From assembly GCA_021163365.1 (NCBI GenBank), contig JAGGWW010000042.1:1-42325 (forward strand): DNA of 42,325 bases. The letters run 5' to 3'. This document shows, piece after piece, positions 2,006 to 40,800 of the stretch. This DNA comes from Nanobdellota archaeon (GTDB lineage Archaea; Nanobdellota; Nanobdellia; CSSed11-243R1). Both the position numbers and the translations under genes were made by a program. Each line of letters starts with the position of its first letter. Position 1 is the first letter of the stretch. The notes beneath the pieces were generated by a model. That model saw only the letters and a program-made list of their open reading frames with translations. It had not been told where the DNA came from and ran no database searches.

Positions 2006-3515
2006 TTTCCCACCTAAAGTTTCTAAGCCATCTTAAATCATTTGAAAAAACATACCTCATATCATTCACATTGTGCTTTGTCATAAATAATCTTAATATT
2101 CCAAGACCCCATGCAATTACAGGAACTTCTATTCCCAAGGGCAAAGTTACTTCTGGCCTAAATATGCCAGCGCCACCTATCTCAATCCAACCTTTTCCTT
2201 TCATATAAACATGAAGCTCTACTGAAGGTTCTGTAAAAGGAAAGTAACCTGGGACGAATTTAAGCTTTTTAACACCACCAACTTCTAATGCAAACATTTT
2301 TAGGATTCCAAGCAACTCTCTGAATGTTATTTCTTCTCCAAGGATTATACCTTCTACTTGGTCAAACTCTGTTAAATGTTTCCAATCAATAACATCTGGT
2401 CTATAAACTCTGTCTATTGTGAAATATTTTCCTGGAATTTTCAAATCTTTTGAAAGAAGCTTTCTAATAGAAACAGGGGTTGTATGGCTTCTTAAGATAA
2501 TGTCAGCTGATTTCTTTTTGTCAAATGGGTAATGCCATCCTTTTGACCCTGTTTCCCAACCATCTTCATGAACTTTTTCTATCTTATCCAAGAGGGCTTT
2601 ATACTTGCTTAAATCACCAGCTCCTTTTTTAACAAAGTAAATATCATGAATTTCTCTTGCGGGGTGGTCTTGTGGCATGAACAACAAATCATTATTGAAA
2701 AAAGCCAGCTCAACAATAGGCCCTTTCATCTCCTCAAATCCAAATGCAATTAATTTTTTCTTTAGCTCATCTACAAACCTTAAGTAAGGTTGTTTTTTTC
2801 CAAGGAAAATTGGTGGGGCTGGTGCAGAAATATCATACTTTCTAAATTTTTTATTTTTCCAAGATTTATTTAAAATTATTTCTGGTGTTAAAATATCAAT
2901 TGTTTCTTCTATTTTAACTTTTGGAAGAATTTGCTTTCCTTCTTTTGTGAGATAAACTTGTTTTATTTTTTCTTCATCTATCTCTATTAAACCTCTCTCT
3001 CTTAAAAATGGAATTGCTTGTCTTAAACCCTCTGGGATTTCTTCTAAAAGTTTCGGGGTTTGAAGCTCTTTTAAAAGTTCTTCACTTATCCATTCTGAAT
3101 TTAGTTTTAACAAGCCAATATCAGTAATTTTAATTAATCCATTTTTTATTTCAATGCAATTCTCGTCTTTTAGAAAACCTATTGCTGCATTGAATTCGTT
3201 TTTATCTAAATTTGCCTCTTTTATTACATCTTTAAATGTCTTTGGTGATTTTTCAATGACTTTTAAAAATCTTTTTTCTGGCATTCCAATTTTTGCATAC
3301 TTTAATCCAAGCTCAGTTGCTTTAAATCTTTGCTTAATGTCTTCTAATATGTGAATAAGCCCCTTTGCTTTAAGCCATTCTATTGCTCTATTAATCTCAT
3401 CTTCTCCAAGACTTGTTTTTTCCATCAATGCTTTTTGCGAAATTCCTTCTCCTAATTCTTTTAATGCCAATAGAACTTTTTTCTCAAGATTGTGAAGTGT
3501 TTCAACATCAATCAT
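1998..3515 (-). CDS. pheS: Phenylalanyl-tRNA synthetase alpha subunit (long archaeal type)
   Basis: FMPQDHPAREIHD, LRSHTT, VYRPDVIDWKHLTEFDQVEG, YFPFTEPS, EIGGAGIFRPE motifs. Confidence 0.97.
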   Translation of the reverse strand: MIDVETLHNLEKKVLLALKELGEGISQKALMEKTSLGEDEINRAIEWLKAKGLIHILEDIKQRFKATELGLKYAKIGMPEKRFLKVIEKSPKTFKDVIKEANLDKNEFNAAIGFLKDENCIEIKNGLIKITDIGLLKLNSEWISEELLKELQTPKLLEEIPEGLRQAIPFLRERGLIEIDEEKIKQVYLTKEGKQILPKVKIEETIDILTPEIILNKSWKNKKFRKYDISAPAPPIFLGKKQPYLRFVDELKKKLIAFGFEEMKGPIVELAFFNNDLLFMPQDHPAREIHDIYFVKKGAGDLSKYKALLDKIEKVHEDGWETGSKGWHYPFDKKKSADIILRSHTTPVSIRKLLSKDLKIPGKYFTIDRVYRPDVIDWKHLTEFDQVEGIILGEEITFRELLGILKMFALEVGGVKKLKFVPGYFPFTEPSVELHVYMKGKGWIEIGGAGIFRPEVTLPLGIEVPVIAWGLGILRLFMTKHNVNDMRYVFSNDLRWLRNFRWENA

Positions 3516-8303: not shown

Positions 8304-10108
8304 GTTTTTTCAAGCAAATAAAAGGATATTAAAATACCAAGCAATGCTCCTGAGATGAGTATGAGGATATCAATAATTAAATTTGTTGTTGAAAATGGTT
8401 TAACTTTAAAAACTTCTATTTCAGCACCTTTTTTAACTAATTGTTTGCCAGTTGTAGCTTCAACCAAATCTTCAGATATTAAAGCCATTTGCCTTGAATA
8501 GCTAAAGAAAACCATTGATTGAAGAGGGTCTTTTTGTCTTAAGGTTTTTCCAAACTCTAAATAGCTTAGTGCTAAGATTGGTAAAAGTCCTTTTTCTTCT
8601 GCTTTTTTAATGTAAAGCTTTGCATCATATTCTAAGTCATTTAATTTTTCTTCAATTGTTTCATTTGTTAATGCCCTAATCTCCATTGCTAAATTTGCTG
8701 TTGCTCTTGCTTTTGATGCTTCAAACAAAGCAAACACATAATTCTCAGAATTGTATGCTGTTATTGCTTTTTTAAGATGTTCTTTTGCTTGTTCAACAAC
8801 AGAATTATTAACAACAGTTTGAGCATAAACAATGGATGTTTGAGCTTGTTCTATTCTTTCTTGAGCAATGGATTTAACATTTTGAGGATTAAATGATAAA
8901 ATCATGTCACCTTTAAAATAATTAACAAGTGTAAGCCAACTGTATGCTGTATTTTCTCTAACCTTTGCAAATGCTGCTAAGTATAATGTTTTATATGTGT
9001 CATTCTCTATTTTTGCATTGTATGCTTCTTTTAAAATGTCTTCTGCTTCTTTTATCCTATCTATTACTACAGCATAAACTTCTATGTCATTTAAATTGTC
9101 TATTTTTCTATTTCTTAAAAATAAGGATTCAAATGTGCTAATATCAAGTGTAACATTCCCAAGAATCTTATTTAGCTCGTTCTCTTTTTCCTCACTTTCT
9201 TCATAGGTTAAAACATAGATAACATACTGAGAATTTATCATGGACCTCACAGAAAAGCTTGATGCAGAATAATATTCTTTTTTTGAAAAACTATCTTCTG
9301 CATTATTAATTTCTTGCTTTGCAAGATTAAGATATTCTTTAAGCTCGCTTTTAATACTATCTGATGCTATTGAAACATTAAAATTTCCTTCTGCTTTTTC
9401 ATATAGTTCTTGCGCTTGATTTAAAAGCTCATTGCTAAGTTTTTTCATTATCTCTGTATATGTTTTTGAAGCTATTTCTGAGTTTGTTATGTTTTTTCTT
9501 ACAATTTGATAACCAGTTAAATACTTGTACGCGTCTGTTATATCCCCAACATCAATAACGTCAATATCCCATTTTGACTTTGCTAAGGATTTTATGTTTT
9601 CATCTAATTCTCCTTTTGGGATTAGAAGTACTTTAGCTCCAGCAATGTATGCTGCTTGTGTTTTTTCTATTATTCCACCAACTGGACCTATGCTCCCACC
9701 AGGATTAATTGTTCCTGTTATTAACACATCTTTTTTTAAGTTAATTCCTTGCAAAGCTGCCATTGTTGCAGCTGTCATAGCTGCACCAGCACTTGGACCT
9801 CCAACCATTTGGTAATCAGAATGTATTATGTAAAAGAAGTCAAGATTCGAGCAGTTATATTCCAATATATTGCATGCAACTTCTTTAGCAAGTCGCGCAG
9901 AAGCTTGCGTATCAATTTCTGTTAAAGGTTTTGTTTCAACAAAAACTCTTCCACTTCCAGGTTTAACTTCAACTGTTAGGTTTGCAACAACACCCATAAA
10001 GTCTCCAGAATCAAGAACTCTAACTCCAAGGATTTTTGTTTGTGCAATATTTGCATGAGCAATACTAAGTGAAATTAAAAATAAAAGAGCAAATAACTTG
10101 ATTTTCAT
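8300..10108 (-). CDS. Membrane-anchored Lon-like (S16) serine protease without an ATPase domain
   Basis: Signal peptide; GGPSAGAAMT catalytic Ser; TGTINPGGSIGPVGGIIEK catalytic Lys; long helical stalk; C-terminal TM helix. Confidence 0.88.
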   Translation of the reverse strand: MKIKLFALLFLISLSIAHANIAQTKILGVRVLDSGDFMGVVANLTVEVKPGSGRVFVETKPLTEIDTQASARLAKEVACNILEYNCSNLDFFYIIHSDYQMVGGPSAGAAMTAATMAALQGINLKKDVLITGTINPGGSIGPVGGIIEKTQAAYIAGAKVLLIPKGELDENIKSLAKSKWDIDVIDVGDITDAYKYLTGYQIVRKNITNSEIASKTYTEIMKKLSNELLNQAQELYEKAEGNFNVSIASDSIKSELKEYLNLAKQEINNAEDSFSKKEYYSASSFSVRSMINSQYVIYVLTYEESEEKENELNKILGNVTLDISTFESLFLRNRKIDNLNDIEVYAVVIDRIKEAEDILKEAYNAKIENDTYKTLYLAAFAKVRENTAYSWLTLVNYFKGDMILSFNPQNVKSIAQERIEQAQTSIVYAQTVVNNSVVEQAKEHLKKAITAYNSENYVFALFEASKARATANLAMEIRALTNETIEEKLNDLEYDAKLYIKKAEEKGLLPILALSYLEFGKTLRQKDPLQSMVFFSYSRQMALISEDLVEATTGKQLVKKGAEIEVFKVKPFSTTNLIIDILILISGALLGILISFYLLEKT

Positions 10109-10144
10109 ACATGCAAAAAGATGTAGATAACTTATAAATGCTAC

Positions 10145-10356
10145 GCATGAGAACGCGGGTTCCTACATGAGAACTACGCTTCCATACCTCCCTTTTCCGT
10201 AAAGGCTTTCTTCAAACCTTTCTTAAAAAGAAAGCTTTACCAAAGAAGCCTTTTCCGTAAACGCTTTTCTTTAGAAAAGGGTTTGAAGAAAGATTTACCA
10301 AAGAAATCTTTTGTGTAAAGGCTTTTTCTAAAAGTTTGAAGAATATGGGTTCTGAT
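10145..10356. repeat. Dispersed modular hairpin element, copy 1
   Basis: 10249-10292 is identical over 44 bp to 12462-12505; contains ATGAGAAC/GGTTC units and a 13-bp perfect inverted repeat (10206-10218 / 10280-10292). Confidence 0.9.
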
Positions 10357-12248: not shown

Positions 12249-12515
12249 AACCTTTCTCTTAGGAAGAGAAAGCTTAACCAAAGAGAAATGAGAACCACCA
12301 GCGGGTTCTCATCCGTTCCTGCAACCCATAGGAACCCAGGTTCCTATTACCTCCTGCATAGGAACCTCCGGCGGGTTCCTATTACCTCCAGGAACCATAG
12401 GAACCTCCAGCATGAGAACCACCAGCGGGTTCCTATATCAGAACCTACGCTTCCATACCTCCCTTTTCCGTAAACGCTTTTCTTTAGAAAAGGGTTTGAA
12501 GAAAGCTTTAAAGAG
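12249..12515. repeat. Dispersed modular hairpin element, copy 2 (longest)
   Basis: Tandem ATGAGAACC..GGTTCTCAT and ATAGGAACC..GGTTCCTAT hairpins plus AT-rich modules; 12288-12326 is identical to 29654-29692. Confidence 0.92.
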
Positions 12516-12544: not shown

Positions 12545-13660
12545 ATGGCTGAATTCAAAGTAACGCCATGGGAAGTTGAAGGAAAAATAGATTATGATAA
12601 GCTTGTTAAGCAATTTGGGGTGTCTTTGATAGATGAAAGTATCTTAAAGAAATTTAAGAAAATAACAGGAGAAGTCCATTTCATGCTTAGAAGGAAAATC
12701 TTTTTTGCCCACAGAGACTTAGATTTTATCTTAAATGAGTATGAAAAAGGGAACAAATTTTATCTTTACACTGGAAGGGGTCCTTCTGAAAATCTTCACT
12801 TAGGTCATTTGCTTCCACTAACATTCACAAAGTATCTTCAAGAGAAATTTAAAGTTAAATGTTACATTCAGTTGACTGATGATGAGAAGTTTTTGTTTAA
12901 AAGAAATCTAACAATTGAGCAAGCAAATAAGATTGCTTATGAAAATGCATTAGATATAATTGCGCTTGGGTTCAATAAAAAACTCACAAAGATAATTGTT
13001 GATACAGACTATGCAAAAACACTTTACAAACAAGCAATAAGGGTTGCAAAACACATAACTTTTTCAACTGCTAAGGCTGTTTTTGGATTTGAAAATTCTT
13101 CAAACATAGGACAAATATTTTACACAAGCATGCAGGCAGTTCCTGCTTTTCTTGAATCTGTTTTTCAAGGGAAAAATGTTCCTTGCCTAATTCCACATGG
13201 AATAGACCAAGACCCACATTTTAGGATTGCAAGAGATGTTTTGCCAAAACTTGGATATTTAAAACCAGCGTCGATTCAAAGCAAACTCTTGCCTGGTTTG
13301 TTGGAAGGAGGAAAAATGTCAGCATCTATTCCGAATTCAGCAATTTTTACAACAGATACACCTAAAGAAATTGAAAAGAAGATAAAAAATGCTTTTTCAG
13401 GAGGAAGAGAAACAATTGAGGCTCATAGAAAATATGGTGGAAATCCTGATATTGACATACCTTTTCAATATTTAAAGTACTTTTTTGAGCCAGACGATAA
13501 AAAATTAAAGAAAATCGAAGAAGACTATCGCTCTGGGAAGCTCTTAACTGGTGAATTAAAGCAGATAGTTATTGAAAAAATAACAAAGTTCATATTAGAA
13601 CATCAAGAAAAAAGAGAGAAAGCAAAAGATGTAATTGAGGAATTTATTTTAAGAGATTAA
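12545..13660 (+). CDS. trpS: Tryptophanyl-tRNA synthetase (archaeal/eukaryotic type)
   Basis: VTPWEVEG, YTGRGPS..LHLGH, IDQDPHFR, KMSAS motifs. Confidence 0.97.
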   Translation: MAEFKVTPWEVEGKIDYDKLVKQFGVSLIDESILKKFKKITGEVHFMLRRKIFFAHRDLDFILNEYEKGNKFYLYTGRGPSENLHLGHLLPLTFTKYLQEKFKVKCYIQLTDDEKFLFKRNLTIEQANKIAYENALDIIALGFNKKLTKIIVDTDYAKTLYKQAIRVAKHITFSTAKAVFGFENSSNIGQIFYTSMQAVPAFLESVFQGKNVPCLIPHGIDQDPHFRIARDVLPKLGYLKPASIQSKLLPGLLEGGKMSASIPNSAIFTTDTPKEIEKKIKNAFSGGRETIEAHRKYGGNPDIDIPFQYLKYFFEPDDKKLKKIEEDYRSGKLLTGELKQIVIEKITKFILEHQEKREKAKDVIEEFILRD

Positions 13661-14190
13661 GGTCTTGTCCATCTAACTTCATAGTATGTTACATCTCCTT
13701 CATCATCCACTATTCCAATTAAAAGCTTTTTTCTAACAGAATGCGCGACTCTCATCATTGCTGCAAACTTCCTCCAATCAAAAATTTCTGTTTCATGCAC
13801 TGCAAATAAAACCCATTTTGCATGCTCCTGTCCTGGTGTTGTTCCTCTTTCATAAACTCTAAAATCAGCACCATATTTTAAAGCTGTTTTTGTTATATAT
13901 CCTCTTTTCCTTATATCAGCATAAACAGTATATCTTGTATAAAACCTTGGGTCAACTTTTGTTGCTTCTTTTATAAACCTTTTTAAATCCATAAGTCTGC
14001 CTTTCTGGCTTTTAATAACAATTGTTCCTTTTTGCATTAAGAATAATGCTTCTACTAAAGCAAGTTCTAATTTATCTCTAACTATTTGTCCATACCATCC
14101 TTTGTTAAAAATTCTATTTGATGCTTCTTTATCTAATATAATAACCTTGTCTCCTGTTAAAATTGCTTCAGCTGGTGGTTCTTTAGCCAT
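13657..14190 (-). CDS. endA: tRNA-splicing endonuclease, catalytic alpha-type subunit
   Basis: VYADIRKRGY..KTALKYGADFRVYERG..PGQEHAKW...RVAHSVRKK with the Tyr-His-Lys triad. Confidence 0.95.
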   Translation of the reverse strand: MAKEPPAEAILTGDKVIILDKEASNRIFNKGWYGQIVRDKLELALVEALFLMQKGTIVIKSQKGRLMDLKRFIKEATKVDPRFYTRYTVYADIRKRGYITKTALKYGADFRVYERGTTPGQEHAKWVLFAVHETEIFDWRKFAAMMRVAHSVRKKLLIGIVDDEGDVTYYEVRWTRP

Positions 14191-17008: not shown

Positions 17009-18754
17009 ATGAGTAGTTGGGGTGATTTTTTGGATATAAATGCATTGTTTAGCAGAGAGACAAGATTGGAAACATTGGTTGATGGCTGGTATTTGGATAA
17101 AGAAAATAAAGTAATTTATGATTTTAAATGTGGAAGATATCCTTATTCTAAGATTGAAAAATTAGCAAAAGGGTGTAGAGTTATCAATGATGATTGGGCT
17201 GGTTTTATTTTTCCAAATACACCTGGAGTTTTTAAAATAAAAGAAGAAAAAGAGGGTTATGCAATTGTTGAAAATAACGGTTTGCATGTAATTAATTTGG
17301 AAACAATGGTTGTTAGTAGTAGTAGCGTCGATGAAATAATACTTAACTTCAAAGAGCATGATGAAATACAATGTAAAGATGGAATTGTTGCTTTTGTTGG
17401 AGTAGAAAATAATAAAGAGAGAGTTATACTTTTAAAAAATGAAGAAGCAAAAAGCAGAGAATATAATCATATTCCTTTTTTGTGTTTACACAAAGGTATT
17501 GCTTATTTCACAATTAGAGATGAGGAGCGTAGTAGAATTGCATTATTTGATGGAAAAGAAGAAATAATGGGCGTGTCATATAAATACGCTATTCCAGAAG
17601 TTGAAGGAAATAAAGTATTATTCCATATACCGTATGCAAGAAGAGTTTTGCTTTCTAAAGATAAATTAGGTGCAAAGTTAAGCTATTTTAATCATAAGAA
17701 TGAGCTTAAGGGTGTAGGATATTTAATTAAAGAAGGAGATAAAGAAAAAATTTTGCTTGAAAAAGATGGTAAGTTGTTTGAAAGCAAATTACACAATAGA
17801 ATAGTTGAACTAGTTGTAGAAAATGGAACAGCTGGTTTTATTGATAAAAATGAGAATGGGGAGATGGCAATAATATTTGATGGAAGTGAAGAGTTGAAAA
17901 CCAAGCAGTATTTTAAAATTCTTGACTTTGAATTTGAAGATGGTGTTGCATACTTTAGGGCTGTAAGGTTTGACAATGTTAACTATTTTGTTGTTATATT
18001 TGATGGAGATAATGAAATAAAGAGCAAAGAACGTGCTTTTATTAAAGATATTATTTGTGAAAATGGTTTTATAACATTTGCAGCTGAAGACAAAGATGGT
18101 TATAGGGCTGTTGTATTCAATAAAGAAAAAGAAATAGAAAGCGGTGTTCATAAAGATATTGGCAGAGTTAGATACAAAGATGGATATCTTGCTTTTTCAG
18201 CTAAGGATGAAGATAAATGGAGAATAATCTTATTTGATTTGAAAAAAGAAATGGAAGGAGACAGATTGTATGATAAAATTTCTTCTTTGATTGTTGATAA
18301 CGGAGCTGTTGCTTTTGGAGGGCTAGAAGGATATAAGAAAAGGATTATTATATTTAATGGAAAAAGAGAAATGGAAAGCAGTTTATATCCTAAGTGTTAT
18401 CTTGTTGATTTTGAAAATGGCATTGCTTATTTTGTAACTGGAGAAGAAGATAAATGGCGTATGTATTTATTTGATGGGGAAATAGAAATAGGAAGCAAGA
18501 GGTTGTATAATAGAATTGGAAAGATAAAAAGCAAGCATGGTATTGCTTTTGTAGGAACAGAAGGGGATAAGAAAAGGATTGTTGTATTAAATAAAAAAGA
18601 AGAAGTAGAAACTGAGCTGTTTGATGATGTAGATATCTTGGAATTTAAGAATGGTGTTGTTAGATTTAAATATAAAAAAGATGATGTTTGGAAAGAAGGT
18701 TCTATATCAACAAATAGATTTAATCCTTTTAAAAATCTAAGAAAAGTCTTCTAA
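17009..18754 (+). CDS. Beta-strand repeat protein with about 40-aa repeats (track start 16997; ATG 17009 with GGTG SD is more likely)
   Basis: About 10 imperfect repeats of the form (N/D)G..xF.....K.RIILFDG..E..S..Y..I; no signal peptide. Confidence 0.75.
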   Translation: MSSWGDFLDINALFSRETRLETLVDGWYLDKENKVIYDFKCGRYPYSKIEKLAKGCRVINDDWAGFIFPNTPGVFKIKEEKEGYAIVENNGLHVINLETMVVSSSSVDEIILNFKEHDEIQCKDGIVAFVGVENNKERVILLKNEEAKSREYNHIPFLCLHKGIAYFTIRDEERSRIALFDGKEEIMGVSYKYAIPEVEGNKVLFHIPYARRVLLSKDKLGAKLSYFNHKNELKGVGYLIKEGDKEKILLEKDGKLFESKLHNRIVELVVENGTAGFIDKNENGEMAIIFDGSEELKTKQYFKILDFEFEDGVAYFRAVRFDNVNYFVVIFDGDNEIKSKERAFIKDIICENGFITFAAEDKDGYRAVVFNKEKEIESGVHKDIGRVRYKDGYLAFSAKDEDKWRIILFDLKKEMEGDRLYDKISSLIVDNGAVAFGGLEGYKKRIIIFNGKREMESSLYPKCYLVDFENGIAYFVTGEEDKWRMYLFDGEIEIGSKRLYNRIGKIKSKHGIAFVGTEGDKKRIVVLNKKEEVETELFDDVDILEFKNGVVRFKYKKDDVWKEGSISTNRFNPFKNLRKVF

Positions 18755-23496: not shown

Positions 23497-23620
23497 TGGC
23501 CCCGAGGGGACTTCCCCAACCCTTTCTTTCCACAGGCTTTCTTTTTAAGAAAGGGCTGATTCGAACCCCCGACCTACTGCTTAGAAGGCAGTCGCTCTAT
23601 CCAAGCTGAGCTACGGGGCC
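23497..23620 (-). tRNA. tRNA-Arg(UCU) with a 49-nt intron in the T loop (23511-23559, 59/60)
   Basis: Acceptor GGCCCCG/CGGGGCC-A, D arm GCTC/GAGC, anticodon arm ACTGC-CTTCTAA-GCAGT, T arm GGGGG-TTCGAA|T-CCCCT; the intron ends form a 12-bp stem. Confidence 0.93.
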
Positions 23621-29619: not shown

Positions 29620-29653
29620 GTTTTATGTAAAAAAAGATAGATTAAAATACTTT

Positions 29654-29807
29654 ATGAGAACCACCAGCGGGTTCTCATCCGTTCCTGCAACCATAGGAAC
29701 CTCCAGCATGAGAACCACCAGCGGGTTCTCATATCAGAACCTACGGTTCCGATACCTCCCTTTTCCGTAAAGGCTTTGTTACGAAAAGGGTTTGAAGAAA
29801 GCGAACC
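29654..29807. repeat. Dispersed modular hairpin element, copy 3, flanked by 24-bp direct repeats
   Basis: Colinear with copy 2 apart from a missing 70-bp block; AAAAAAGATAGATTAAAATACTTT occurs at 29630-29653 and 29808-29831. Confidence 0.92.
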
Positions 29808-29849
29808 AAAAAAGATAGATTAAAATACTTTGCTTAGCTTTCATTTTTT

Positions 29850-30251
29850 ATGAGAATAACACTAAAAGCAATCTTCATAATAATCCTTGGTTTAATTGTT
29901 GGAACTGTTGGATTAATTTTCATTATGAGTGGTTTTAGTGAAAGTGGCGAACAAACAAAAGGATTTTGGAATATAAGCAGCCATATATTTAAAAACGCTT
30001 CAGAAAAAGCACAAGAAAAAACAGAAGGCGCAAAATTATGTAAAGATTTGGGTGAACGCTGTAGTAGTACTAGTGAATGTTGCGAGGATTTAGTTTGTAG
30101 AAAAGAATCAAGCAATAGTCAAAAGTATTGTCTTAAATGCGGAACTGGAGATTTAGTAGCTGGAAAAGGGGATTACTGTGAAACAAATTCTGACTGTTGC
30201 GCTGGCTATAGTTGTCATAATGCTGGCTCTTCAAATGCTTACTGTGCATAA
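29850..30251 (+). CDS. Small membrane-anchored Cys-rich protein with two knottin-like (C-C-CC-C-C) units
   Basis: N-terminal TM helix followed by CKDLGERCSSTSECCEDLVC...C and C...GDYCETNSDCCAGYSC...C. Confidence 0.75.
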   Translation: MRITLKAIFIIILGLIVGTVGLIFIMSGFSESGEQTKGFWNISSHIFKNASEKAQEKTEGAKLCKDLGERCSSTSECCEDLVCRKESSNSQKYCLKCGTGDLVAGKGDYCETNSDCCAGYSCHNAGSSNAYCA

Positions 30252-37827: not shown

Positions 37828-40800
37828 CTATGGTTTGCATTTAACTTTTGTTAGTGCTGTACCAGCGCCTTTATATTCCCCAGGTGTTTCAATCCACTTA
37901 CATAAATCATAAGTCCATCTATGGTTTGCATAATCGTAATAACATGAGTTTGTATTGGATAAGCCAGAATAACCTTTACATTTACAAAATTCATTTAACG
38001 AATAAATACTTGCAGATTGGGTAGAGCAATCTCTCCAACCAGTATCACTTACGTACACTGGGAATGGTAATTCTACCAGACCTCCATTGCAGGCAATTTT
38101 TATTAGTGCTGTACCAGCACCCATGCTTTCTCCTTTTGTTTCAAACCATTCACACATATCTGCAAAGTCCCATGGACGCGCATTATTTGATTTTTTAACA
38201 TAGCAATGTTTTGTTGTTGTTTGACTTAAGTCTATATCATAACCCTTACACTTACAGAAAATCTTAAGCTTTTGTAGTGCATTATCACCAAACACTCCTT
38301 CGCAATTTGTCCAACCAGATTTTGTTGTTGATGTGTTTATGTCAAATGATGATGGTGAAACATCTCCACTATATCCAATGAAGTTTCCATTTTTATCTAC
38401 AACATCGCAAACTATCTTTGTGACAGCCCATTGATTTGGTGCTGGTGATCCAAAACTTGAAGTATCAGCAAGATTACAATATCCAAGCTTCCACCTATCG
38501 CTTGTAGAGTAGTAATAGCACACGTTTGTATCAGCTAAGCCAGAGTATCCTTTACACTTGCAATATTCATCTAACCAATCAACTGGTGGAGATTGAGGAA
38601 TGCAATTTATCCAACCAGAAGGATTCCATGCATATAATGGGAATGGAAGAACAACAATATTTCCAGAACAGTTAACTTTTATTAGCGCTATGCCGCTACC
38701 TTTCTCGTCTTTTGGGGTATTAAACAAAGCACACATGTCTTGTTGTTTCCATCTATTATTCACAGATTCGTAATAGCATGGGTTTGTATCAGCATCAGCT
38801 AAGCCAGAGTATCCTTTGCACTTACAAAAGTCATTTAACCAGTAAATACTTTCAGGTGTGAGGGCGCAATAGTCGTCCCAACCACTACCCTTAAACGCAG
38901 TATATAATGGGAATGTCAAGCTCACTTGCACATAACTTTTAACACATTTACCATCTTCGCATGTAAGCCCGCTGTTACAAGCATTTTCATTATCGCAGCA
39001 AGGTTGATTTTCTCCTCCGCAAGCATAGCAATAATCTCCGCTGCGCACATTTCCATCATAGCAGCCATTATACATATTAGATTTCCAATCGTTATTACAT
39101 GCTGGTTCGTTGTTATCTCCGCAAGCTGTTACTGTAATAGTCTTAGAACTTGAGCCACCTTCTACTGCTGGAGAATATGCTGTTATTGTAAATGTTTTTG
39201 AGCCTGAGCTAATAGAAAATTCATCATTAACTTGGAAGACACATTCTCCTTTTCCATTATTTTGAATTGTTGCTGCGCAAAGAATCGTGTCTTCATGATA
39301 AACTCCAGAGTGCTTTCCTTCACAACCATTGCAAAAACCAGTTATTGTTGCTTTAATCCAGTCTCCTTCATAAACAGATGTTGCATTTAATGATAATGAT
39401 ATATATCCGTGACACAATGTGCCATCTTCTCCAGGGTCAATACATGTATCTTTTAATTGAGCATCTGCATAGTCAGCATCGCAGCAAATTAAGCCATGTC
39501 CACCAAAGTCTCCTGTATCATCTGAGCCACAGCATGGGCACGGGTCTCCTGGGAAATTAGAACAATATGTTTCATCTTGGCAGACCCCATCCTGGCAGTC
39601 TCTTGGGTCTGGGTTAGCTACATCTGGTGGTGCATCTCCACCTGATTGAATATCTGTTGCATTATATACTATGCTATCGGTTTTTCTTCCACCTTCGAAG
39701 GTTAAATCAAATTCTAAAAGTTCGTATCTGTAATCAATTGTTGAAAATGCTTGAAATTCAACAACATACATTCTATTGTAATTTTCTGTTGATGCTGTTG
39801 GAGTAATATTAAAGCAAAGAACTTTTGTTGGTGTTATGTTCCATTCTTCAACACCTGTGTGCCAATCATCTGTTGCATCTATAATTGTTGTCCAATTAAC
39901 ACAATTTGGAGATGCATAAATTTTATATTTATAATTGTATCCATCATAAAGATATATTTTTAAACTGCTGATTTCATAAGGTTTTTTAAGTTTAATTGTT
40001 GTTGGGCATCCAACTGGTATTAGTGAAAAGCCATATGGGTAATTAACTTCTGTTTCTCCATCAATTGCGTGATTTTTTCGCCACACGGTGCAATAACTGC
40101 TGTATATGTCAGCAGCTTCATCAAAAGAAGCAACATTTTTCTTAATTGGTTTTGTCATTAGTTGTTTGTTTATTCCATTAACAATTTTACACAAAATGTA
40201 TTTTGTATTAGAATTACAGTTTGAAGAGAAATCTTTGATTATTAATTTTCCATTGCTATTAATAACATGAACAGTACAATCATCTAATAAATTTGAACCT
40301 TTTTGATATCCACTGCAATAATTTGGACGATTTGTTGGATAAAGAGTTTCATTTGAATCAATGTAGTTTAATAACGCTTCGCCATACGAAGGTGTTGTAG
40401 AGTTATATGTAACCTCTGTTCCATCTTTATAGTGTTTTTTAATTGAAAAATCAACATCAATTACTGTTGGTATTGGAGAATTTTTGGGGTCATTTAAAAG
40501 CCAATTAAACTCATTATTTTCAACAATGTTTTTTGATTCACTATAAAGTTTTTTAAATGGTGTTTTTGTGTAAAGATGCACATAAGGTGAAAATTCATAT
40601 TCAACAACTGGGTTTTTTGGAGGATATTTTATCATATTAATTATTTGGCCAATTGGATACCATCTTGTTTGAATCACATCTTCGCTAACATCTTTTGTGT
40701 AATTGAAATCAAGATAATAATTAAAGAAAACAGGTTGCAGTGTTGCTGCGGCAATTGAATTAATTACTCTTTCATCTGGTGAGCTAAACATTGTGTCAAT

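Follow-up and report, generated by a model that had tools for sequence, protein, structure and literature searches.

Arrays of short hairpins in a DPANN genome

The window considered here, meaning the whole stretch of 42,325 nucleotides that was analyzed, is contig 35 in the genome of a DPANN archaeon that occurs in hydrothermal-vent metagenomes. The host genome, with a G+C content of ~32%, comprises 752,584 bp in 44 contigs and is 91% complete with 0.5% contamination; the archaeal nature of the host is evident from its rRNAs, RNase P RNA, and EndA. Other contigs of this genome are referred to below as C8, C11, C18, C24, C30, and C39. Three arrays of short hairpins lie in the window, each separated by 35-45 nt from the beginning of a leftward open reading frame (start codons at 10108, 12211, and 29619; Table 1). 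The second array occupies the spacer between a leftward gene and the divergently transcribed gene for tryptophanyl-tRNA synthetase. At a distance of 1.1 kb from it lies the gene for EndA, the tRNA-splicing endonuclease; no other EndA-like gene was found in the host.

The window holds other features of note. A gene at 29850-30251 (+) encodes a small cysteine-rich protein with an N-terminal hydrophobic segment that matches Pfam Toxin_12 (E = 4e-9), a knottin-type ion-channel inhibitor fold and an odd match for an archaeon. A 117-120-nt repeat at 18072-18611, present in five tandem copies with 61-78% identity to the reference copy, probably reflects a protein with repeated units of ~39 residues, and several diverged direct repeats at 37835-38846 (families D7, D8, and D11, with spacings of 252-576 nt) are probably internal repeats of a minus-strand gene.

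Table 1. Coordinates of the arrays, their modules, and associated features in the window.
Feature	Position	Strand	Description
Copy 1	about 10143-10356	+	shrunken A/T part, then B-C-B-C, inverted T-arm at end
Copy 2	about 12249-12510 (267-nt array, 12249-12515)	+	C, A units, T, B
Module C of copy 2	12249-12287	+	AT-rich hairpin module, three segments
A unit 1	12288-12326	+	hairpin 12288-12312 (9-bp arms, 7-nt loop) and C-rich tail
A unit 2	12328-12357	+	hairpin 12328-12347 (9-bp arms, 2-nt loop) and tail
A unit 3	12358-12396	+	hairpin 12358-12382 (9-bp arms, 7-nt loop) and tail
Truncated A unit	12397-12411	+	5' arm and loop only; equals 29693-29707
Hybrid hairpin	12412-12436	+	left arm of ATGAGA type, right arm of ATAGGA type
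Module T	12437-12463	+	degenerate hairpin, ATCAGAACC variant at 12437, ending ACCTCCC
Module B	12464-12510	+	AT-richer, structured; family D6 of the repeat search
EndA (tRNA-splicing endonuclease)	13657-14190	-	177 aa, N- and C-terminal domains
tRNA-Arg(UCU)	23498-23620	-	49-nt T-loop intron 23511-23559, B-like module; called by ARAGORN only without the insert
Left 24-nt direct repeat of copy 3	29630-29653		TATA-like box facing the alanyl-tRNA synthetase gene
Copy 3	about 29654-29807	+	A, truncated A, A, T, B
Right 24-nt direct repeat of copy 3	29808-29831		18 nt upstream of the rightward ORF starting at 29850

We divided the element into four modules, named C, A (the 39-nt unit), T, and B. 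All composite arrays follow the order (C)-A(n)-T-B(-C-B), and their A units run head-to-tail, all on the + strand in the window, with the linkers between hairpins formed by conserved 14-nt tails. Copy 2 contains three full A units, one truncated unit, and one hybrid hairpin; in our reading of the alignment, the end of the truncated unit coincides with an internal 9-nt direct repeat of the unit. Copies 2 and 3 end in unrelated modules (A or C on the left, B on the right), and copy 1 alone ends in an inverted T-arm.

A preliminary description of this DNA had reported three copies in a single orientation, and a repeat search and BLAST recover the same three; the hairpins that it listed, including the ATCAGAACC variant, are all present. 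As it had also noted, copy 3 lacks exactly the 70 nt at 12327-12396 (A unit 1 is 100% identical to 29654-29692, family D4 of the repeat search, and the truncated unit follows directly in both arrays), and copy 1 combines a shrunken A/T part with extra B and C modules. Two of its statements hold in part. The arrays do sit beside the start of a leftward gene, whereas the TATA-like box said to lie between the two has been judged by eye only; and the AT-rich module exists but comprises modules B and C, which are structured members of the family.

The hairpin GAAC[CT]-N2-9-[AG]GTTC occurs 39 times in the genome, compared with 5-21 times in 20 shuffles, and about 30 of the 39 show the full ATNNGAACC...GGTTCNNAT form. 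RNA folding gives z-scores of -4.6 and -5.1 for the + and - strands of copy 3 and -7.2 for the + strand of copy 2, and none of 200 shuffles was as stable as copies 2 and 3. In keeping with the preliminary description, which recognized no named family here, the arrays have no match in Rfam 15 at the gathering score, and permissive settings returned only microRNA-like matches far below thresholds. The arrays are not CRISPR-like, because their 14-nt linkers are conserved rather than unique spacers, and no Rfam CRISPR repeat family matches at threshold. We also considered a coding reading, in which the 39-nt period would represent 13 codons without stops, and rejected it: units of 40 nt and 30 nt break the frame, and units also occur in tRNA introns.

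The same modules form predicted introns in tRNA and rRNA genes

BLAST comparison of the three copies with the host genome returned many matches inside tRNA genes. Using nhmmer profiles seeded from the arrays, we found 75 module matches in 37 clusters genome-wide: 19 clusters fall inside tRNA genes or no more than 60 nt away from them (six of the tRNAs concerned were recognized by eye only), four lie inside 16S or 23S rRNA genes, and one lies in a protein gene, while eight are composite arrays and five are single modules without an RNA gene. The number of arrays is a lower bound, since four of the eight fall within about 300 nt of a contig end, and the elements explain why assemblies of such genomes break there. 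The tRNA and rRNA genes, ~1% of the genome, hold 23 of the 37 clusters; this excess suggests targeting to such genes or an RNA-level step, and random insertion plus filtering explains it poorly. At the three arrays of the window, Rfam found no host RNA gene.

The insertions account for a marked deficit in tRNA annotation. A tRNA model matches 33 places in the genome (20 over its cut-off) against 12 ARAGORN calls, and the intron modules explain why tRNA finders miss most tRNAs of such genomes. In a tRNA-Ser gene, for instance, an insert of 104 nt composed of A and T modules splits the T-loop after GGGTTCGAA. ARAGORN called none of five such loci when intact; with the T-loop insert removed in silico, it called four of the five as canonical tRNAs (Ser-UGA, Ser-GGA, Leu-AAG, and Arg-UCU). 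Insert boundaries were predicted from the bulge-helix-bulge (BHB) motif GG-TTCR-AA↓N...YGAG-AG↓T-CC (arrows, cuts), in which the T stem would form the outer helix, TTCR/YGAG the central helix, and the cuts would fall in two 3-nt bulges. Read by eye, this motif appears to be present at T-loop introns with A modules and relaxed at B-type introns.

Each module has its own range of contexts. Module B, which in reverse complement makes up the bodies of tRNA introns in T-loops and D-loops, occupies four D-loops and at least four T-loops; module T is found in tRNA introns and, in frame, in one protein gene; and module C occurs elsewhere, in same-family genomes, directly after stop codons or inside tRNA genes (L002, L004, L006, L007, and L011). 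The modules of the arrays are the bodies of predicted EndA-type (BHB) introns in tRNA and rRNA genes of the host.

EndA, presumed to be the enzyme that removes the intronic copies, would splice these inserts at the predicted motifs. Most host introns are at non-canonical positions, and according to an extract of PMC5829648 such introns need EndA of the (alpha-beta)2 or epsilon2 type, which makes the single gene for a protein of 177 aa of interest.

Probable insertion and turnover of the elements

The divergent gene pair flanking copy 2 is syntenic in all six same-family genomes, and none of the six carries A, T, or B modules in the orthologous spacer. In the three sister-genus genomes whose spacers were read, the intergenic region is about 100-110 nt long, one with a C module only and two with a shorter remnant. 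The 267-nt array is thus lineage-specific. Copy 2 also varies among close strains: the dominant strain of run X1, which has 23 differences in 2 kb (about 1.2% divergence), yields a contig in which position 12258 is joined directly to A units of the copy 3 type, so that its module content differs (a comparison of contigs, not reads).

One insertion lies in a coding gene. A gene for a MiaB/MtaB-like radical-SAM protein (C30:20871-21989) carries module T in frame, and five of five orthologues in the family lack 7 residues exactly at this module. Because the frame is open and no BHB motif was seen there, the insert is probably translated.

Copy 3 is bracketed by a perfect 24-nt direct repeat; at 3000 random places, no flanking repeat of at least 14 nt was found. 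The repeat contains the TATA-like box of both divergent genes, so that each gene has kept a copy of the promoter. For this copy there is no orthologous spacer to compare, as the alanyl-tRNA synthetase of the sister genus is of a different type (~30% identity). Shorter flanking repeats occur at arrays on C24 (10 nt) and C39 (11 nt), each with p ~0.01-0.02, such that one to three of the 13 free-standing and protein-gene sites have a flanking duplication, and the other 10 do not rise above the null. Among the 26 intron-associated module sites (in the 23 tRNA/rRNA clusters), none has a flanking direct repeat above the null, and the 24-nt duplication is therefore not a general signature of the family. 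As a separate observation, a tRNA D-loop intron with an antisense A unit in a Nanoarchaeota MAG (L098) is flanked by an 8-nt direct exon repeat; none of this kind was seen at the host's own introns.

The hybrid hairpin of copy 2 has a reciprocal counterpart at C11:5052-5076, and these hybrids, together with a truncated unit that ends at a 9-nt repeat, fit unequal recombination or slippage between units. The preliminary description had proposed a recently active modular family of variable unit number and conserved secondary structure that grows and shrinks by unit slippage. A recently changing family with these features is supported, and gain and loss of units by recombination or slippage fits the 70-nt difference between copies 2 and 3, the reciprocal hybrids, and the strain-level change in copy 2. 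Its further suggestion, of an orientation bias relative to promoters, has not been established. In seven of seven arrays the A end points toward the start of a gene, but for the four that are flanked by divergent genes this could hardly be otherwise, leaving only three arrays between same-direction genes as informative.

Among Logan contigs of four DNA runs, two joints are odd. A low-depth contig found in all four runs joins 28293 to 10359 with 10 other letters between; as 10359 is the right edge of copy 1, this joint suggests that a related strain has undergone rearrangement at the element. Run X1 contains a joint of 29740 to 12545 with 1.8 kb of unlike sequence. Within the host genome, C11:5150-5335 and C18:20955-21112 share an identical right flank beyond their arrays and have different left flanks, which means that the locus is duplicated or that the assembly forks at the repeat.

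Few candidate mobilizing enzymes are encoded. The 91%-complete genome has no match to PF01797, the Y1/RAYT transposase, no reverse transcriptase was found in it, and no TnpB scored above the cut-off. Only two tyrosine recombinase genes are present, and the second (C30:23529-23978; L168), ~1.5 kb from the protein gene that bears module T, carries an in-frame TAA. No terminal inverted repeats are present at copies 2 and 3.

A conserved 39-nt unit in many archaeal lineages

By BLAST, modules of the 267-nt array match all six genomes of the same family and 7 of 54 further genomes in the class, in contexts that include sites directly after stop codons, sites inside tRNA genes, and, in another family, a tandem A array. 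We also searched one genome for each prokaryote species using an exact pattern of the A unit (hairpin core, loop, and tail), in which 20 bases are fixed. At least 115 matches were found in archaeal MAGs, against a chance expectation of ~1e-4 by our own estimate, which was not computed by a tool. The 80 matches listed are all from archaeal MAGs and carry about 15 lineage labels: DHVE2/Aciduliprofundum (29), Woesearchaeota (10), Iainarchaeum (9), Pacearchaeota, Nanoarchaeota, and Thermoplasmata (5 each), Bathyarchaeia (3), Parvarchaeota and Pyrohabitans (2 each), Micrarchaeota, Aenigmatarchaeota, Altiarchaeota, Hydrothermarchaeota, and Methanobacteriota (1 each), and unlabelled archaea (5). These counts should be read with the knowledge that MAG bins can be contaminated and that related genomes are not independent samples. 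The viral contigs of IMG/VR contain no A-unit match, and hence no vector is known for spread between phyla.

Among the 86 units listed, 15 lie inside intron-containing tRNAs called by ARAGORN, 14 in sense and one in antisense orientation, many of them mutual orthologues. Another 10 fall within 60 nt of a tRNA call. The remaining 61 have no ARAGORN tRNA nearby; by visual inspection, some of them belong to T-loop or D-loop introns, in either orientation, and some to tandem arrays.

An alignment of 86 distinct A units, from about 15 lineage labels, spans 43 columns, of which 20 are invariant, most of them fixed by the search pattern itself. The arms of the hairpins had been said to co-vary, and the outer stem pairs of this alignment do show compensatory changes (e.g., columns 5:25: AU 39, GU 17, GC 16, CG 8). 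A second signal lies outside the stem. The first nucleotide of the loop and one nucleotide of the tail, in columns left free by the pattern, share 1.16 bits of mutual information and can pair in 82 of the 86 units (UA 43, AU 33, GC 6, other 4), across different stem backgrounds. The loop, NCCRG, can pair with the tail, YUCCN', by three standard pairs around two invariant C.C oppositions; the neighboring pairs (AU 76, GU 9, other 1; GC 69, GU 16, other 1) vary one-sidedly toward G.U on the forward strand, with 25 G.U against 2 unpaired cells. An alternative helix, GCGGG/CCN'GC, was rejected, as its other pairs are all invariant and the variable base forms a G.A mismatch in half of the units.

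The loop-tail helix looks like an H-type pseudoknot, or perhaps a protein-held fold of a single strand, and its pattern of change argues for a role of the forward strand as a single strand that folds. Conservation of the unit beyond that usual for selfish repeats, the G.U bias, and the 14:1 sense orientation indicate selection on RNA.

At C8:16746-16830 (L020), a leftward gene has a single A unit immediately next to its start codon. On the strand of this gene the unit provides a GGAGGTGAT motif, which is sequestered by pairing with an inverted copy of the tail in an 8-bp hairpin. The A-unit tail is identical to the 3' end of 16S rRNA over up to 10 nt, at C8:16770.

A probable intron-forming mobile repeat and its alternatives

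We judge, with somewhat more confidence than doubt, that the family is a non-autonomous, intron-forming mobile repeat. Mobile, self-expanding DNA of this kind would persist wherever its insertion is harmless. Inside stable-RNA genes, the helices of the insert would combine with neighboring exon bases to complete a BHB motif and thereby allow excision by EndA. Spacers beside promoters would tolerate it, once with the promoter duplicated, the leaders and trailers of tRNA genes would offer further harmless sites, and an in-frame insertion in a variable protein linker could be tolerated as well. The arrays of the window would be free-standing, lineage-specific insertions that expand and contract, their size changing by recombination or slippage between units. 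We infer both the mechanism by which the family inserts, no enzyme for it having been found, and the direction of transfer between introns and arrays.

Because the modules take three forms (intron bodies, free arrays, and an in-frame insertion), they offer a concrete donor/recipient system in which to study intron gain. A broader proposal, which we offer tentatively and judge less likely than not, is that of a pan-archaeal 'introner-like' element: a pseudoknot-forming unit of ~39 nt and companion modules would multiply as arrays and seed BHB introns in the tRNA and rRNA genes of DPANN, Thermoplasmatota, Bathyarchaeia, and other lineages, with the loop-tail pair marking the site for a mobilizing activity encoded by the host. 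If this were true, archaea would gain introns from the arrays, which would be the donor pool that has so far been missing. An A unit that recurs nearly letter for letter in many archaeal phyla is in any case a lead on the origin of archaeal introns, and it provides a defined 39-nt RNA or DNA unit, common to many phyla, with a testable base pair.

The alternative with most in its favor, unlikely in our estimation, is that the arrays are structured noncoding RNA genes, with the A unit as a functional RNA module made of a hairpin and a loop-tail pseudoknot. Such RNAs would be expressed from introns, released by EndA and perhaps circular, and from arrays read from the AT-rich promoter region, and they might serve the host, for example through contact with a conserved protein or through an effect on splicing or translation; the tail resembles the 16S 3' end. 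This explanation draws its main support from the apparent importance of a folded forward strand, which is hard to square with a repeat that is purely selfish duplex DNA. Covariation extends to the loop-tail columns that the search pattern left free, in an alignment whose 20 invariant columns are mostly the product of that pattern, and the outer hairpin pairs of 73 units have 29 forward-strand G.T against 14 A.C. The sense orientation of 14 of the 15 units in ARAGORN-called introns and the fixed module order of the arrays point the same way, as does a TATA-like run, identified by eye, that precedes many free units of several phyla by 0-15 nt. Yet the distance from TATA to hairpin would place the transcription start inside the first hairpin, and on the + strand of an array the A units are in sense and the B modules are the reverse complement of intron sense, so that no single transcript carries both in the 'intron' sense. 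An RNA gene would also have to be reconciled with absence of the array from the orthologous spacer in six of six relatives, with a unit number and content that vary among copies and strains, and with hybrid hairpins in which 2 of 9 pairs are broken.

It is improbable that the hairpins are instead double- or single-stranded DNA sites for a protein, such as the core sites of a tyrosine recombinase or an iteron-like array. Inverted arms of 9 bp around an asymmetric 7-bp spacer, reciprocal hybrids with a crossover within the shared core, and, in our reading of the alignment, the recurrence of the 9-nt motif ACCNCCNGC every 19-20 nt would all suit such sites, and the genome has its two tyrosine recombinase genes; moreover, the anticodon loops and T-loops of tRNAs are classic sublocations of integrase targets. 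Intron junctions, however, keep whole hairpins rather than hybrid sites, the one-sided changes to G.U alone and the lone loop-tail pair are easier to reconcile with a folded single strand than with a duplex site, and no binding protein was identified.

We give very little credence to assembly artefact or chance similarity: Logan contigs of four DNA runs do break at the elements, with no listed contig bridging a whole array, and one join of the C11 and C18 arrays, with their identical right flank, may be an assembly fork, but contigs of two runs span the left junction of copy 3, dozens of MAGs that were assembled independently contain the same units, and hairpin counts against shuffles, folding z-scores, and covariation argue against chance.

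Comparison with known mobile elements and introns

As a putative mobile repeat that forms introns, the family invites comparison with several known systems. The preliminary description had labeled it REP/BIME-like, and the resemblance to REP, BIME, and REPIN elements is real: in each case short palindromes, GC-richer than an AT-rich genome, cluster in spacers in variable number, with compensatory changes in the stems and a short imperfect palindrome as the basic unit. We nevertheless reject the label, because the units here run head-to-tail rather than in the alternating inverted pairs of BIMEs, copies also lie within genes (23 of 37 clusters in or at tRNA or rRNA genes and one in a coding gene), and no Y1/RAYT transposase was found. 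The host is also an archaeon, and, unlike in REP elements, the loop and the 3' tail are conserved. MITEs are likewise small, non-coding, and multi-copy, and copy 3 has a perfect 24-nt flanking duplication as a MITE might. This duplication is far longer than those made by known transposases, however, and there are neither terminal inverted repeats nor, as far as was found, a related autonomous element that encodes a transposase.

The closest archaeal parallel comes from the Thermoproteales, in which BHB introns have transposed among tRNA genes (Sugahara 2008; Fujishima 2010; both as cited in an extract of bioRxiv 10.64898/2026.10.13.758758), and the same extract describes the route by which introns arrive as still open. 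Direct repeats near intron borders in general are reported in an extract of PMC11782384, in whose data only four introns are archaeal. Like the elements described here, Thermoproteales introns have near-identical bodies in different tRNA types and positions of one genome, with boundaries that fit the BHB motif and EndA as the presumed processor. The bodies in our host differ in being modular, in occurring also as tandem arrays outside RNA genes, in rRNA genes, and once in a protein gene, and in sharing one unit across many phyla. Searches of full-text literature, with incomplete coverage and no sequence matching, turned up no account of intron modules that stand free as arrays, nor of the A unit. 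New here are the link between array and intron modules, the cluster census, and the empty site in relatives, as well as the coding-gene insertion, the 24-nt duplication, and the loop-tail covariation.

Eukaryotic introners are spliceosomal introns derived from transposons, non-autonomous and tolerated via host splicing, with free copies elsewhere. The archaeal family departs from them in relying on a protein endonuclease and a BHB motif rather than on the spliceosome, and it has no terminal repeats and no regular target duplication. In principle, with mobility here a matter of deduction, the two are alike: copies within genes would be tolerated through splicing, and free copies reside elsewhere in the genome.
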